A stretch of DNA of 62,052 bases from Candidatus Woesearchaeota archaeon (GCA_964372375.1 CAYJQF010000001.1:1-62052); one strand, 5' to 3'; counted from the first letter of the stretch, positions 40,679 through 53,953 are shown. Made by a program: numbers and translations. The notes: a model not told the origin generated them from the sequence alone.

Positions 40679-41068
40679 ATGAAAAGAACAATGTTTATCC
40701 GATGGCAAATATATGAATTGGATTTTCCAAGCAGAGTAGCAGGGCTTAATGAGTTAGTAACTTACTTCGGTGTTTCCCCAGAAGATGTCCAAACACATGT
40801 TTTTTTTAGATTGCCAGGTTTTCAAGACGGGACATACCAAATCGGTTTACAGAAACTTGAGTTACGTCAAGAACAATGTTTATCCGATGGAACCAAGATA
40901 GCAATGATTGGAACACACAAGCCAAAAGTATCGCTTATACCTATCAAAACGCCTGAAGCAGAAGAAATTTATGAAAAAATAGCAAGATTATCTTTAGATT
41001 ATATGCTTGGTTTTGTAGAAGGACCACCTATTCCTGAATTTACAAGGATGGCTGGACAGCATGGGTAA
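40679..41068 (+). CDS. hypothetical protein inserted between rpl23 and rpl2
   Basis: 129-aa ORF, 1 nt after the rpl23 stop and overlapping the rpl2 start by 8 nt. It is not r-protein-like, is AT-richer than its flanks and contains a 22-nt direct repeat read in two frames. Confidence 0.55.
   Translation: MKRTMFIRWQIYELDFPSRVAGLNELVTYFGVSPEDVQTHVFFRLPGFQDGTYQIGLQKLELRQEQCLSDGTKIAMIGTHKPKVSLIPIKTPEAEEIYEKIARLSLDYMLGFVEGPPIPEFTRMAGQHG
40684..40705. repeat. 22-nt direct repeat, copy 1 (AAGAACAATGTTTATCCGATGG)
   Basis: Exact match to 40869-40890. Confidence 0.95.
40869..40890. repeat. 22-nt direct repeat, copy 2
   Basis: Exact match to 40684-40705. The 185-nt offset puts the copies in different reading frames. 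Confidence 0.95.
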
Positions 41069-41759: not shown

Positions 41760-42163
41760 TGGTAGAAGAAGTGCTTGTCAGGTCAAAGGAAGTATTTTAC
41801 CGGGGTAAGAACCTGAATGAATTGAAAAATCTTGATGTTCGTGAAGTTGCGAAATACCTGCCCTCTCGAAGCCGTCGTTCAGTATTACGAAATTTCCAGG
41901 TCATAGAAAAGTTTGTAAAGCGCTGTGAGACGGCACTTGCAAACAATAAACGGATTCGAACTCATTTGCGTGACTTAGTGATTGTGCCTAAGCTGGTAGG
42001 TATGCACATTGCAGTCCATAGTGGCAAGGCGTTCAATGAAGTACAAATTAAACACACGATGATAGGTCATCGTCTGGGCGAATTTGCCTTAACGCGGGGC
42101 AGAGTCACTCATGGTAAACCAGGTCTGGGAGCAACGAAGAGCTCCTCGACGGAGAAGAAGTAA
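41759..42163 (+). CDS. rps19: 30S ribosomal protein uS19
   Basis: Archaeal S19 pattern (HSGKAFNEVQIKHTMIGHRLGEFALTR). Confidence 0.9.
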   Translation: MVEEVLVRSKEVFYRGKNLNELKNLDVREVAKYLPSRSRRSVLRNFQVIEKFVKRCETALANNKRIRTHLRDLVIVPKLVGMHIAVHSGKAFNEVQIKHTMIGHRLGEFALTRGRVTHGKPGLGATKSSSTEKK

Positions 42164-42164
42164 C

Positions 42165-42791
42165 ATGGAAAAGCAATATGCGCCAACAAATGCAGAGAAG
42201 AAGCAGCCACAGAAGATTAAGCAGAGCCAGCAATTGTCAAAGCAAAATACAAATGTCAAGTCAGAGAGAGGAGAGGAAAAACAGGAAGAAAAAAAGATAG
42301 ATGTTGTACCAGATACTACGAAAGGTCCAGAGATAAGAGAAACAAAAGAGAAAGAACAGAAACAAGAGACGAAGCAGGAAGCAAAGCCTCAGAAGGTCAA
42401 GAAAGAAGAAGCGATAGCTCGCGGAGATTCACTCTCCATGTCAAAGAAACACGGCATGTACTTGTGTTCATTCATCAAGCAGAAGAGTGTGGATACAGCA
42501 CTTGCAGAACTGGAGGAAGTGATAAAATTGAAGAGAGCCATACCCTTTAAGGGAGAGATCCCGCATCGCCATAATCCAGGCATGATGTCAGGAAGGTATC
42601 CGGTAAATGCTTCAAAATGCATGATTCAGGTTCTGAAAGGCTTGCGGGGAAATATACTTGCAAATGGACTTTCCGTGGATAAGGCAAAGATTTATTGGGC
42701 ATCAGCTTCCTGGGCATCACGCCCTGCACGACGAGGTGGCACGAGGTTTAAAAGAGCACACATCATCCTCAAAGCTAAGGAGTTTACCTAA
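42165..42791 (+). CDS. rpl22: 50S ribosomal protein uL22 with an N-terminal K/E/Q-rich extension of about 95 aa
   Basis: The core starts near ARGDSLSMSKKHGMYLCSFIKQKSVDTALAELEEVI. ATG 42165 lies just after the rps19 stop, so the ORF-track start at 42111 was rejected. Confidence 0.88.
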   Translation: MEKQYAPTNAEKKQPQKIKQSQQLSKQNTNVKSERGEEKQEEKKIDVVPDTTKGPEIRETKEKEQKQETKQEAKPQKVKKEEAIARGDSLSMSKKHGMYLCSFIKQKSVDTALAELEEVIKLKRAIPFKGEIPHRHNPGMMSGRYPVNASKCMIQVLKGLRGNILANGLSVDKAKIYWASASWASRPARRGGTRFKRAHIILKAKEFT

Positions 42792-43462
42792 TGGAAGAGA
42801 AAAAATTTGTCATCTTTAAGAAAGAAGAACTGGGCGTAAAAGAATATATAAAGAAAGAGTTGGGCAAAGGGCGTATTAGCGCAGTTACCATCGAGTACAC
42901 ACCCATTGGAGAAAAGATAGTGATTGCGACAAGCAAGCCGGGCCTGGTTATTGGAAGGAGGGGAGAGAAAATTGATGAGCTCACTCGTGTATTGAAGAAG
43001 CGCTTTAAGCTTGACAATCCTCATATTGAAATTCGTGAGATTTTGGAGCCGCGATTGGATGCGCAGCTTGTTGCTGATGAAATTGCTTTAAGCTTGGAAC
43101 GCCAAGGCTCACTCAAATTCAAAGTGGTTGCATATAAAATGCTTCAGGAAATTATGCGTGCCAGCGCCCTAGGAGCAGAAATTGTACTATCAGGCAGATT
43201 ACCGAGTGAGCGGGCAAAGTCTTGGCGGTTTGCGCAAGGGTATCTAAAGAAAACAGGCGATCCGGCAAAAGTAGTGGACAAGGCAACAGCGCAGGCAATT
43301 AATATAGCCGGGGTTACTGGTATTAAAGTAAGCATTCTGCCGCCACATGCACTCATTCATGACCGGATTGTTGTTGATGATGCATTCAAAGCAAAGCTCA
43401 CACAGCATTCGTTGGTTGTTGAAGAACCAGCCGTAAAGAAAAAGCGGGGAGGCAAGAAGTAA
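42791..43462 (+). CDS. rps3: 30S ribosomal protein uS3
   Basis: KH domain (KPGLVIGRRGEKIDEL) and position. Confidence 0.92.
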   Translation: MEEKKFVIFKKEELGVKEYIKKELGKGRISAVTIEYTPIGEKIVIATSKPGLVIGRRGEKIDELTRVLKKRFKLDNPHIEIREILEPRLDAQLVADEIALSLERQGSLKFKVVAYKMLQEIMRASALGAEIVLSGRLPSERAKSWRFAQGYLKKTGDPAKVVDKATAQAINIAGVTGIKVSILPPHALIHDRIVVDDAFKAKLTQHSLVVEEPAVKKKRGGKK

Positions 43463-43663
43463 ATGGCCTTAATAAAAGCAAAAGATGCAGCAAAAATGAA
43501 CAAGGAAGAGCTGGAAGCAAAGATGAAAGATGTGCGCTTTGAGTTGGTAAAGGCGAATGTTACCGCACATAAAGCTTCAGCAAAGACTAAAGAAATAAAA
43601 AAAACAATTGCCCGTCTATTCACGTTCCAAAAAATGAAAACGGAGGTGTCGGCAAAGAATTGA
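43463..43663 (+). CDS. rpl29: 50S ribosomal protein uL29
   Basis: 66 aa, MNKEELEAKMKDVRFELVKA. Confidence 0.9.
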   Translation: MALIKAKDAAKMNKEELEAKMKDVRFELVKANVTAHKASAKTKEIKKTIARLFTFQKMKTEVSAKN

Positions 43664-43664
43664 T

Positions 43665-43973
43665 ATGGAAAGCGATCCTGATCCACGGCTCGGACTACCA
43701 ACGGGCGCTGATATATTCGAGGAGATTGCCAAGAGCGAGCAGAAAATAAGCATCACTACCGTTTCACGGCGATACGGCAAGATTACTACGCTTGTTCAAG
43801 GATTTGAGAAGACAGTTGATATCAAAGGCACTGCAAAAAAGCTTAAAGAGCGGCTTGCATGTGGGGGAACAGTCAAAGAAAATATTATTGAACTTCAGGG
43901 AAATCACAAGAAACAAGTCAAACCAATTTTGGTCAAGCTTGGATTCCCTGAGGCATCCATAACCGACTCATAA
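43665..43973 (+). CDS. sui1: translation initiation factor aSUI1/eIF1
   Basis: RRYGKITTLVQGFE..LKERLACGGTVKENIIELQGNHK. Confidence 0.88.
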   Translation: MESDPDPRLGLPTGADIFEEIAKSEQKISITTVSRRYGKITTLVQGFEKTVDIKGTAKKLKERLACGGTVKENIIELQGNHKKQVKPILVKLGFPEASITDS

Positions 43974-43974
43974 C

Positions 43975-44319
43975 ATGGCACCAAAAACAAAGGAAACAAA
44001 CAGCAAGAAAACGCAAGAAAGGAAGGAAGTAGCAGTGCCTACACGTGGGAGAATCTTCGAAGGCACGATTACAAAGAAATTCGCCACCCGCGCAGTCCTT
44101 GAATTTGAGCGCACGATATATATGAAAAAGTTTGAGCGTTTCTACAAGAAGAAAACAAGGATTCATGCGCGCATTCCTGCAGGCATGCAGGTTGAGGTAG
44201 GAGAGTACGTACGTGTTCAGGAATGCAGGCCGTTAAGCAAGATTATTCATCATGTAGTTATTGAGAAACTAAGGTCAGTTGAGCAAAAAAGTAAGCAGGA
44301 AACGGGAGATAAAAAATGA
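43975..44319 (+). CDS. rps17: 30S ribosomal protein uS17
   Basis: GRIFEGTITKKFATRAVLEFER..VRVQECRPLSK. Confidence 0.9.
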   Translation: MAPKTKETNSKKTQERKEVAVPTRGRIFEGTITKKFATRAVLEFERTIYMKKFERFYKKKTRIHARIPAGMQVEVGEYVRVQECRPLSKIIHHVVIEKLRSVEQKSKQETGDKK

Positions 44320-44600
44320 GTACTATAACTATTTATGATGTTGATAGAAAATACTGGCAGGCATTAGAGGGAATTAATGCATGTATGGAGATTGTAGAAG
44401 GAAATGGTTCAAGTCAAGAATTTTTAAGAGAATTTAGATCTGTTGCCGAGGAATACCCATCTGCAGAACTTCTGAGGGGTAATAGCAATATCTTCGTCTG
44501 GGACAAGGTTCTTTCAGAAAAGGTTTCTTCTTTCAGGGATAAATTAGTAGAAGTATTTGGGACTAAGGATGCACTATTAGCAGAGGCACTGACGCAATGA
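44316..44600 (+). CDS. hypothetical acidic protein inserted between rps17 and rpl14
   Basis: 94-aa ORF with ATGA overlaps at both ends. About 16 acidic against 10 basic residues, AT-richer than its flanks, no recognised family. It is not the Rpp29 expected near here in many archaea. Confidence 0.55.
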   Translation: MSTITIYDVDRKYWQALEGINACMEIVEGNGSSQEFLREFRSVAEEYPSAELLRGNSNIFVWDKVLSEKVSSFRDKLVEVFGTKDALLAEALTQ

Positions 44601-44998
44601 AAGCAGTATCTGCTCTCGTTACTCGAGGCCTGAACATAGGAAGTAAAGTCGTTGCCGCTGACAATTCAGGAGCCCGCATTGTTAGAATTACTTCAGTCGT
44701 TCATGGCAAATCCAGGAAAGGCAGGCAGCAGTTTGCAAAAGTAGCGGATTGGGTAAAGGTATCAGTGCGTGCAGGTAAGCCGGAGATGAAAGGGCAGGTC
44801 TTTGATGCAGTGATTATCAGGCAACGTATGCCCTATCGGAGAAGGACGGGAGAGCGAGTTTGCTTTGAAGATAATGCGGTTGCCCTGCTCAAGGATGAAA
44901 AAGGCAATCCCAAAGGCACGTTCATTAAAGGACCGGTAGCCAGGGAAATACATGAACGTTGGAAGGAGGTCGCCAAACTGGCGCAATATGTGCTATGA
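44597..44998 (+). CDS. rpl14: 50S ribosomal protein uL14
   Basis: ADNSGARIVRITSV..; 133 aa. Confidence 0.93.
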   Translation: MKAVSALVTRGLNIGSKVVAADNSGARIVRITSVVHGKSRKGRQQFAKVADWVKVSVRAGKPEMKGQVFDAVIIRQRMPYRRRTGERVCFEDNAVALLKDEKGNPKGTFIKGPVAREIHERWKEVAKLAQYVL

Positions 44999-45357
44999 GT
45001 AATTCAAAAATTTCTGATGAGAGAAGAGTAGAACTTTTGAGAGAAATTGCAGCAGGAAATGAAAATTTGCTTGAATTTATAGCATGCGAGAAAGATGCAA
45101 AAGATTTTCAAGAATTTCTAGAGTTTGTACACAATGTTGAAGTAGGGTCTTTGGAGGCAGCTCGTAAAATAGCCGATAAATATCAACCTATAGTCGTAAA
45201 CTTACTTGTCATGCCTTCTGCAGATTATCAATGTCCAAGACAGGAATACCGACAATTGAATAGATTTGCAGTAGAGAGGGCCCAGATAAAAGTTCAAGAG
45301 TATCTCGCAGCAAGGCAGATAATAGCGCATATTGGAATGGTAGGAGGCGAGCAATGA
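44995..45357 (+). CDS. hypothetical acidic protein inserted between rpl14 and rpl24
   Basis: 120 aa from ATG 44995, with ATGA overlaps at the rpl14 stop and the rpl24 start. Sampled GC is about 32 %. No recognised family. Confidence 0.55.
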   Translation: MSNSKISDERRVELLREIAAGNENLLEFIACEKDAKDFQEFLEFVHNVEVGSLEAARKIADKYQPIVVNLLVMPSADYQCPRQEYRQLNRFAVERAQIKVQEYLAARQIIAHIGMVGGEQ

Positions 45358-45746
45358 AATCCTCATTTTCCTCTTCTTGGAATGCGAGCAGGCAGCGCAG
45401 GAAGCAGCATAAATACCGCTTGCAAGCGCCCTTACATACAAAGCATAAGTTTTTAAGCGCTCATCTTTCTAAAGAATTACGAAAGAAGTATGGCAAGAGA
45501 AGTCTTCCCCTCCGGAAAGGGGATGAGGTGCTTGTCATGCGCGGCAGCTTCACTAAGAAGCGCGCCAAAGTCGTTTCTGTTAATCTCACTGCAGGCATAG
45601 TTGCGTTGGAAGGGATCCAGCGTACAAAACGTGACGGTACAAAAGTGCAAGTACCATTTAATCCGCGTGCACTTCAGATCAGCACGCTCTTTTTAGAAGA
45701 TAAGGAACGACTTGCAATTTTTACAAGGAAACAAGGAAGAACATAA
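45354..45746 (+). CDS. rpl24: 50S ribosomal protein uL24
   Basis: SRQRRKQHKYRLQAPLHTKHKFLSAHLSKELRKKYGKRSLPLRKGDEVLVMRG. Confidence 0.92.
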   Translation: MKSSFSSSWNASRQRRKQHKYRLQAPLHTKHKFLSAHLSKELRKKYGKRSLPLRKGDEVLVMRGSFTKKRAKVVSVNLTAGIVALEGIQRTKRDGTKVQVPFNPRALQISTLFLEDKERLAIFTRKQGRT

Positions 45747-53413: not shown

Positions 53414-53953
53414 TTATAATAATTGGAATTGCGCTGCTTCTCTTTTCTGTAATTCAGCAAAATACGTTTGAGTATGTGCACGCACTTGTTTAAGCAAGCT
53501 CATATGATGTTGTGGAACGTCACCTACTTCATCATATAATCCGGTATGAAAACACATTCCACGGTAAGTTACCTTATGGTCTTCGTCCCTTTCTCCTTCA
53601 AATTTCAATTCAAGTGCGCCATTAACGACACTTTGTGCATAAAGATTTCCACGTACATCAACCAGTACTTCTTTTCTCGGCACTGGTTGTCCTTTGACTA
53701 CTTTATCAACAATGCCATATCCAATAGTTATCTGGTTAGAAACAGCAAGTTCAACACGGCAAGGAATCTCTTGTGCAAGATACGTCAAATAGGTTTCGAG
53801 CTCTTCTCCAGTAAAAGGTCGTGGAAAGGCTATGCTCTCCAATTCAGATAGAGAAGGTTCTTCTCTCCTTGGCAAAATGCTAGTGCCTTCATCTCCACTC
53901 ATGTACCTGCATCCAAGAGGTAGGTTATAAACTTTATGGTGTTTCATTGCCAA
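53414..53953 (-). CDS. hypothetical protein
   Basis: 179-aa ORF with native composition and no recognised family. Confidence 0.5.
   Translation of the reverse strand: MAMKHHKVYNLPLGCRYMSGDEGTSILPRREEPSLSELESIAFPRPFTGEELETYLTYLAQEIPCRVELAVSNQITIGYGIVDKVVKGQPVPRKEVLVDVRGNLYAQSVVNGALELKFEGERDEDHKVTYRGMCFHTGLYDEVGDVPQHHMSLLKQVRAHTQTYFAELQKREAAQFQLL

Follow-up and report, generated by a model that had tools for sequence, protein, structure and literature searches.

A small acidic ORF at the uS17-uL14 junction of a DPANN ribosomal protein operon is probably an accessory cassette

No part of a prokaryotic genome is regarded as more stable than the S10-spc operon, whose genes form the core of the marker sets on which genome phylogeny and binning quality control rely. 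What, then, is an orphan reading frame doing between two of its ribosomal protein genes? The question is raised by a 62,052-nt stretch of DNA from a Candidatus Woesearchaeota archaeon (GCA_964372375.1, CAYJQF010000001.1:1-62052; hereafter the window), in which the S10-spc ribosomal protein operon occupies 38.7-52.3 kb on the + strand. Its genes are arranged in the order uL3, uL4, uL23, insert 1, uL2, uS19, uL22, uS3, uL29, SUI1, uS17, ORF94, uL14, insert 3, uL24, eS4, uL5, uS14, uS8, uL6, eL32, eL19, uL18, uS5, uL30, uL15 and SecY. ORF94, referred to below as X together with its relatives, lies at 44316-44600 (+), runs from an ATG start to a TGA stop and encodes an acidic protein of 94 aa, a shortened member of a uS17-uL14 junction family. 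It is flanked upstream by uS17 (43975-44319, +; Pfam PF00366, E = 2.2e-13) and downstream by uL14 (44597-44998, +; Pfam PF00238, E = 2.6e-32). An initial annotation, made by reading the sequence, had placed a 94-aa ORF between rps17 and rpl14 on this strand with ATGA overlaps at both ends, about 16 acidic against 10 basic residues and about 37 % GC, and each of these points is borne out. The start codon (ATG, 44316-18) shares nucleotides with the uS17 stop (44317-19), as does the uL14 ATG (44597-99) with the ORF94 stop (44598-600). The composition is D+E 16, K+R 10, pI 4.57, GC 0.375 (37.5 %) and GC3 0.284. A second, independent assembly (run ERR3478686) is identical to the window over 43316-45544 (2.2 kb). 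Because homologues with 34-56 % identity to the window copy occur at the same junction in other contigs, the ORF is more than a chance open frame. ORF94 is a real protein-coding gene, its function unassigned by sequence or fold.

We sought an identity for the protein among known families. Neither ORF94 nor any of 11 X members matched Pfam or NCBIfam, and none of the 11 matched PHROGs or PADLOC. A sequence-profile search of the PDB with X returned noise throughout (best E = 0.041, unrelated). Foldseek searches with the X model found generic helical bundles in the PDB (best E = 0.5) and, over the PDB and BFVD, generic three-helix bundles alone (E >= 0.3). Archaeal S10-spc operons are known to carry non-ribosomal passengers, SUI1/aIF1 and the RNase P gene Rpp29, before uS17. 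In the window, SUI1/aIF1 (43665-43973, +) stands alone between uL29 and uS17, and an Rpp29 gene is absent from that interval (43463-44319). The initial annotation had seen no Rpp29-like pattern in ORF94 itself, and Pfam and NCBIfam agree; Rpp29/Pop4 (UPF0086, an Sm-like barrel) was rejected on these searches and on the predicted X fold, which is all-helical. More generally, no RNase P or ribosome-biogenesis subunit, the kind of match that the initial annotation thought would count against a novel protein, was found by Pfam, NCBIfam or PDB profile, and similarity to any known ribosomal or ribosome-biogenesis family was absent in these searches and in Foldseek. A helix-turn-helix reading of the conserved 'LARWLYGSSQEFL' motif was dropped because the model gives one continuous helix there. 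A viral or anti-phage defence protein was likewise rejected: X has no PHROG or PADLOC match, no copy on IMG/VR contigs, which also leaves a viral origin without a match, and nothing but generic helical bundles as BFVD fold matches. A non-coding RNA element found no Rfam match at ORF94, and a repeat-bounded element found no flanking repeats. Self-mobility machinery (integrase, transposase, terminal repeats or an Rfam element) was not detected near ORF94, and no nuclease domain or motif was detected in the 11 members by Pfam, PADLOC or PHROG, nor a nuclease fold match. The one suggestion of the initial annotation that failed was distant paralogy between ORF94 and the third insert of the operon. 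BLASTP gives E = 8.7 and hhalign a probability of 0.1 % for this pair; paralogy with insert 1 fares no better (hhalign 0.3 %), and no significant pairwise or profile similarity links the three insert proteins.

Eleven X protein clusters were recovered among billions by word-indexed and exhaustive HMMER searches followed by a profile search; two long repetitive proteins among the matches are spurious. Full-length members have about 110-120 aa and no database annotation, and nine of the 11 are acidic, with pI 4.6-5.2. The AlphaFold2 model of one full-length member, P0019, built on the 11-sequence alignment, reaches pLDDT 91.7 and pTM 0.83 and has helices at 4-26, 42-65 and 72-100, a short C-terminal helix at 105-112 and a conserved loop at 27-41. 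In this confident model full-length X (about 113 residues, acidic) is predicted to be a three-helix bundle, and ORF94 is predicted to be a helical bundle too. Going beyond the initial annotation, the alignments indicate that the window copy is a deletion variant of this longer family. They place an in-frame deletion between codons N30 and G31 (44403-44408, +), where the window protein lacks 22-23 residues, RDNPxDxxxYAPWIxIPTLARWLY, that are present in all other members and are the best-conserved stretch of the family. The missing segment corresponds to the loop and the first turns of helix 2 in the P0019 model. Modelled on the same alignment, window X retains the helix order with pLDDT 67.5 and pTM 0.43. 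Outside the deletion it retains all 8 invariant columns of the family and the nearly invariant GSSQE.L, I59, G82, D85, E90 and L92. Judged from alignment and model, the window protein is probably weakened.

The joints between ORF94 and its neighbours suggest how an extra gene might be accommodated here. The -4 (ATGA) stop/start overlap of co-directed genes is the sequence hallmark of a translationally coupled pair. In archaea, ATGA overlaps mediate termination-reinitiation coupling, as described for overlapping gene pairs (Huber et al. 2019, PMC6728339; PMC10666635). A Shine-Dalgarno-like GGGAGA for ORF94 can be read at 44304-44309 (+) in the 3' end of uS17, and a Shine-Dalgarno-like AGAGG for uL14 lies at 44582-44586 (+), where ORF94 encodes its conserved C-terminal A-E-A-L. 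Across nearly all X loci GGAGG or GGAG precedes the X start by 8-12 nt, inside the uS17 tail. The motif for uL14 stands 11-15 nt before its ATG, within the X codons for (M/A)-E-A-L (..GGAGGC..), and 12 of the 14 other X loci shown have GGAGG or GAGG at the same distance. Where relatives lack an insert, it is the uS17 tail that supplies this motif to uL14. Since the insert-free uS17 tail holds the uL14 motif and X brings its own, the cassette replaces the signal that it displaces. Inserted ORFs in related operons are joined similarly: 75 of 193 have a 4-nt upstream overlap and 75 of 193 a 4-nt downstream overlap, and most of those without one are spaced +1 or -1. We infer that ribosomes finishing uS17 would re-initiate on X and that those finishing X would re-initiate on uL14, both by termination-reinitiation; the cassette would carry the signals needed to stay silent to its neighbours. 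A frameshift or nonsense mutation in X would then be polar on uL14, and X would therefore be expected to decay mainly by in-frame deletion. The in-frame deletion of the window copy is consistent with decay under such polarity.

Is X a regular component of this operon? X was found at about 20 loci, and every retrievable contig reads uS17-X-uL14 with tight overlaps; these are contigs recovered with the family (L001, L002, L010-L018), species representatives (L021, L023, L025, L026) and metagenome contigs (L099-L102). Tested against 302 junction ORFs from 98 operon loci, the X profile matches uS17-uL14 ORFs solely. A scan of the genome collection with X peptide patterns gave no match, the patterns being too narrow. 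A neighbour-joining tree built from ten concatenated ribosomal proteins places the genomes with X in a single subclade of Pacearchaeota/Woesearchaeota-type DPANN, where they are interleaved with genomes lacking X and with genomes having other occupants. The sister of the window on this tree (L019) has an unrelated 132-aa ORF at uS17-uL14. The window uL14 shares a 90 % cluster with proteins of 'Nanoarchaeota' MAGs (L003-L009) that join uS17/uL14, uL14/uL24 and uL23/uL2 directly, uS17/uL14 by ATGA. The initial annotation was thus right in taking a direct rps17-rpl14 junction as the normal state: in relatives whose uL14 is about 90 % identical, nothing separates the two genes, and because these close relatives join uS17 and uL14 directly, X is an insertion. 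Its proviso that ORF94 might not be conserved in relatives does not apply, as homologues are conserved; across related MAGs X is present in some, and the junction is direct or differently occupied in others. A single gain with many subsequent losses or replacements would account for the tree pattern. dN/dS of X is 0.16-0.48 versus 0.03-0.07 for uL14, and selection on X is accordingly purifying but relaxed.

Composition and divergence bear on whether X was inherited together with its neighbours. GC3 of X is 0.22-0.30 in 12 of 12 loci, and that of the flanks spans 0.22-0.50. In the window, GC3 is 0.284 for X, 0.254 for insert 1 and 0.256 for insert 3, with 0.44-0.45 in the flanks of X; the ribosomal genes (0.36-0.48) all lie above the three inserts. 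The 49 long ORFs of the window average 0.383 +/- 0.040. By a binomial estimate, X and inserts 1 and 3 pooled fall about 4.6 sampling SDs below this mean; X alone, with its 94 codons, falls about 2 SD below it when sampling error is allowed for. The low GC3 of X could reflect weak codon selection instead of foreign origin.

A more direct signal comes from three X-bearing contigs, L001, L002 and L015. Between L001 and L002, X has a dS of 0.17, compared with 1.8 in uS17 and 0.84 in uL14; between L002 and L015 the corresponding values are 0.11, 0.90 and 1.1. Over the trio, X (0.11-0.17) is several-fold less diverged at synonymous sites than uS17 (0.28-1.8) and uL14 (0.33-1.1), a difference that we give as 4-5x. 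Informative sites group L015 with L001 upstream of the cassette region (127:7) and with L002 in the 3' half of uS17 (34:20). Across X (12:15:8) and the first 95 nt of uL14 the contigs differ little and lie equally far from one another, and downstream L015 again groups with L001, in the rest of uL14 (38:6) and in uL24 (30:0). The first ~95 nt of uL14 thus travel with the cassette in these contigs, and the history of the X cargo is discordant with that of the flanks. Sliding identity and informative sites, taken at face value, show the trio as a mosaic with recombination breakpoints inside uS17 and uL14, near positions 2140 and 2790 of L001. The three are short metagenome contigs from one project, and the signal may come from chimeric assembly, though three equidistant X alleles would then stay unexplained. 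A converse case is L025, in which a very divergent X stands beside a uL14 nearly identical to that of L010; X is more diverged than the flanks against both L010 and L016. Saturation at synonymous sites affects most other X pairs. The divergence of most other multi-genome insert families follows that of the flanks, so an insert younger than its flanks is not the general rule, and we claim exchange for the X trio and one uL23-uL2 pair only.

Taken together, the GC3 of X, the dS values of the trio and its mosaic structure point to exchange. X is best explained as an optional cassette, patchy in its distribution and horizontally exchanged in at least some lineages, which the initial annotation had not considered. 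We propose that the cassette would move between lineages by homologous recombination, with the conserved flanking ribosomal genes as arms. uL14, whose protein is 80-96 % identical across the X-bearing clade, is a probable homology arm. Exchange through uS17 and uL14 arms would explain why X has been seen nowhere else.

The uS17-uL14 junction is one of several at which related operons vary. We scanned a species-representative collection with uL14, which gave 80 Pacearchaeota/Woesearchaeota/Nanoarchaeota MAG loci, and mapped 24 operon genes on all 98 loci by tblastn, a heuristic in which start codons are approximate. At some junctions the gap between mapped operon genes often exceeded 150 bp. 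This holds for 32 of 95 loci at uS17-uL14 (22 of ~78 species representatives), 33/92 at uL14-uL24, 29/76 at uL23-uL2 and 23/69 at uL3-uL4; the figures are 0/91 at SUI1-uS17, 1/66 at uS3-uL29 and 1/68 at uL29-SUI1. The number of occupied junctions per genome ranges from 0 to 11 of 21. The gaps are filled by ORFs, and the 302 junction ORFs form 241 BLAST clusters, 213 of them singletons. At uS17-uL14 the occupants are the X family, one NUDIX hydrolase and more than 12 unrelated orphans; X accounts for only 4 of the 22 species representatives with an insert there. Only about 20 of the 150 largest inserts have a Pfam match and about 130 have none; the matched families include RNase T-like exonucleases, NUDIX, MazG, HD nucleotidases and reverse transcriptases. 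PADLOC recognised two homing-endonuclease-like ORFs among the inserts. ORF94 is therefore one case of a clade-wide class of variable small ORFs at ribosomal-operon junctions, a wider setting than the initial annotation gave it. Literature searches found no earlier description of inserts in DPANN ribosomal operons, and the clade-wide pattern is apparently undescribed so far.

Several individual loci illustrate the range of this cargo. A few insert families sit at different junctions in different genomes. The NUDIX family occurs at uS17-uL14 in L087 (7624-8001) and at uL30-uL15 in L063, and some cargo genes thus move between junctions. L015, a single 9-kb contig (1-9188), has 8 extra ORFs at 7 operon junctions, including a 201-aa RNase T-like DEDDh exonuclease at uL4-uL23 whose family recurs at uL4-uL23 in four further genomes and occupies eL32-eL19 in one. 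L042 and L043 have kilobase-sized inserts in the ribosomal operon (uL4-uL23 and uL24-eS4 junctions); the reverse-transcriptase and homing-endonuclease-like ORFs of the survey probably come from these, which suggests that bona fide mobile elements also target ribosomal-operon junctions. The uS17-uL14 ORF of L062 (7808-8011) opens with a duplicated uL14 N-terminus (MKAISA...) and then diverges, as if an insertion event had duplicated the uL14 start. L089 and L097 share a 109-112-aa insert at uL23-uL2 with pS 0.29 versus 0.6-0.67 in the flanks; this insert, younger than its flanks, has a near-neutral pN/pS of ~0.9 and is a possible example of an ORF held open by coupling alone. Over the 98 loci, 53 % of inserted ORFs have pI < 7 versus 27 % of ORFs outside the operon, a crude background set.

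With a probability of roughly 0.6, we favour ORF94 as an accessory cassette in a coupled S10-spc junction, and not a core ribosomal or RNase P component. As for what the protein does, a small acidic protein-protein adaptor is our best guess, held with low confidence. Much of the same evidence can be read differently. uL14 is the docking site of RsfS, eIF6/aIF6 and MALSU1, and Bcp1 is a dedicated uL14 chaperone in yeast, so X might be a lineage-specific protein of the translation apparatus, an acidic chaperone or subunit anti-association factor for uL14 or uS17, that was gained once, inherited vertically and lost repeatedly and whose position is fixed by co-translation beside its client. That X is found at uS17-uL14 only, is coupled to both neighbours, occurs in a single subclade, is under purifying selection and is acidic in nine members of 11 (pI 4.6-5.2) agrees with such a role, as does the record of uL14 as a factor docking site; its single-site fidelity, its selection and its acidity would be equally expected of a vertically inherited uL14- or uS17-linked factor. 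We nevertheless find this unlikely. Many close relatives do without X, unrelated ORFs take its place at the junction, the window copy is missing the segment that the family conserves best, the divergence of X is decoupled from that of the flanks in both directions, and X resembles no known ribosomal protein or factor in sequence or fold.

The damage to the window copy admits a further interpretation, that it is a decaying relic whose frame stays open only since a stop or frameshift would uncouple uL14 translation. The 22-23-residue loss takes out the best-conserved motif, the model falls from pLDDT 91.7 to 67.5 and from pTM 0.83 to 0.43 on the same alignment, very short ORFs occur at other junctions, and one insert pair has pN/pS ~0.9. 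We regard a relic as improbable in view of the 8 invariant and the nearly invariant columns that are kept outside the deletion and of the helix order that is kept in the prediction. Presence/absence polymorphism confined to one site, together with co-converted flanks, as found here, is also the classic footprint of homing, and homing-endonuclease-like and reverse-transcriptase ORFs do occur at other junctions in other genomes. X would then be a free-standing endonuclease gene whose product cleaves unoccupied uS17-uL14 junctions, into which the gene is copied. A three-helix bundle without a nuclease motif, without a nuclease match in 11 members (Pfam, PADLOC, PHROG) and without a fold match to a nuclease makes this very hard to credit. 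The accessory cassette that we prefer can also be extended to the whole clade, in what we offer as a speculation with the odds against it. DPANN operon junctions would be landing pads for a pool of coupling cassettes, each consisting of an ORF, a Shine-Dalgarno-like motif and an ATGA overlap, that pass from species to species as the ultra-conserved ribosomal genes recombine. Any mutation that broke the frame would cut off the supply of the ribosomal protein encoded next, and the cassettes would for that reason be hard to lose, a genetic addiction that parasitises translational coupling. X would be one successful cassette lineage, perhaps with a ribosome-directed role (uL14 or uS17 escort, or ribosome protection).

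The accessory-cassette reading has partial precedents. Hotspots of horizontal gene transfer (HGT) flanked by core genes have been described for bacteria (Oliveira et al. 2017, PMC5635113) and are the closest known concept for the uS17-uL14 junction. As in those hotspots (PMC5635113), genes turn over fast in an interval whose two conserved neighbours stay constant, integrases and repeats are not seen, and there is evidence of exchange by homologous recombination in the flanking core genes; what marks hotspot cargo, namely unrelated occupants, a discordant history (in the trio) and lack of self-mobility machinery, is found at this junction. Unlike in the hotspots, the site here is a single gene-gene junction, within an operon that no other in the cell exceeds in conservation or expression, the usual cargo is one small orphan ORF, the inserts are stitched in by stop/start overlap with their own Shine-Dalgarno-like motif for the next gene, and the hosts are DPANN archaea instead of bacteria. 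T4-like phages have free-standing homing endonuclease genes between conserved genes ('intronless homing'). X resembles these in being small, optional and polymorphic among close relatives, with co-converted flanks, but has no nuclease domain or fold and resides in a cellular genome. Like the SUI1 and Rpp29 passengers, X is non-ribosomal, embedded in the operon and, from its position, presumably co-expressed with it; those passengers, however, are ancient, widely conserved and known in function, whereas X is clade-restricted, patchy and placed at a normally direct junction. X shares with the coupled overlapping pairs an ATGA at both ends, each after a GGAG-type motif, yet such pairs often encode subunits of one complex, and here the gene in the middle can be missing or, in other species, give way to unrelated ones. 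It shares with the Bcp1, RsfS and eIF6 class the property of being a small acidic protein made beside a very basic ribosomal protein, but not sequence or fold similarity, and it is optional among close relatives.

The clade-wide junction pattern is more surprising than the single gene ORF94, which is itself of moderate interest. In one large archaeal radiation, up to half of the operon junctions carry optional orphans that are sometimes horizontally exchanged, and at least once the exchange took in parts of uS17 and uL14 as well as the insert. Ribosomal marker genes adjoining such cassettes can therefore be mosaic. The inserts may be a neglected reservoir of highly expressed dark-matter proteins, and they offer a simple natural system for how translationally coupled operons accommodate new genes. 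X contributes a confident new fold-level model and a candidate for uL14/uS17 binding.

The other two inserts of the window are the same class of feature as ORF94 and unrelated to it in sequence. Insert 1 (40679-41068, +) is a 129-aa orphan ORF between uL23 and uL2 with pI 5.9 and GC3 0.254. It matches no Pfam or NCBIfam family and is the sole member of its protein cluster. Within it, 22 nt recur as a perfect direct repeat (40684-40705 and 40869-40890), read in two frames as MKRTMFIRW and EQCLSDG, which may be a recombination or duplication scar. Insert 3 (44995-45357, +), at the uL14-uL24 junction, encodes an acidic orphan protein of 120 aa. Its GC3 is 0.256, and it overlaps both neighbours by ATGA. 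It has zero homologues among 5.8 billion protein clusters and no Pfam or NCBIfam match; in the absence of a homologue no profile could be built for it. L001, L002, L015 and L018 have at uL14-uL24, instead of insert 3, a weakly winged-helix-like family of 86-119 aa. uL22 of the window (42111-42791) has a Lys/Glu-rich N-terminal extension of ~95 residues, and its true start is likely the ATG at 42165, just past the uS19 stop; a comparable extra stretch precedes the uL22 core in 54 of 78 related loci. A 177-aa ORF on the opposite strand (53414-53947, -) has a GC3 of 0.27, the lowest among the long ORFs of the window and near that of the three operon inserts.
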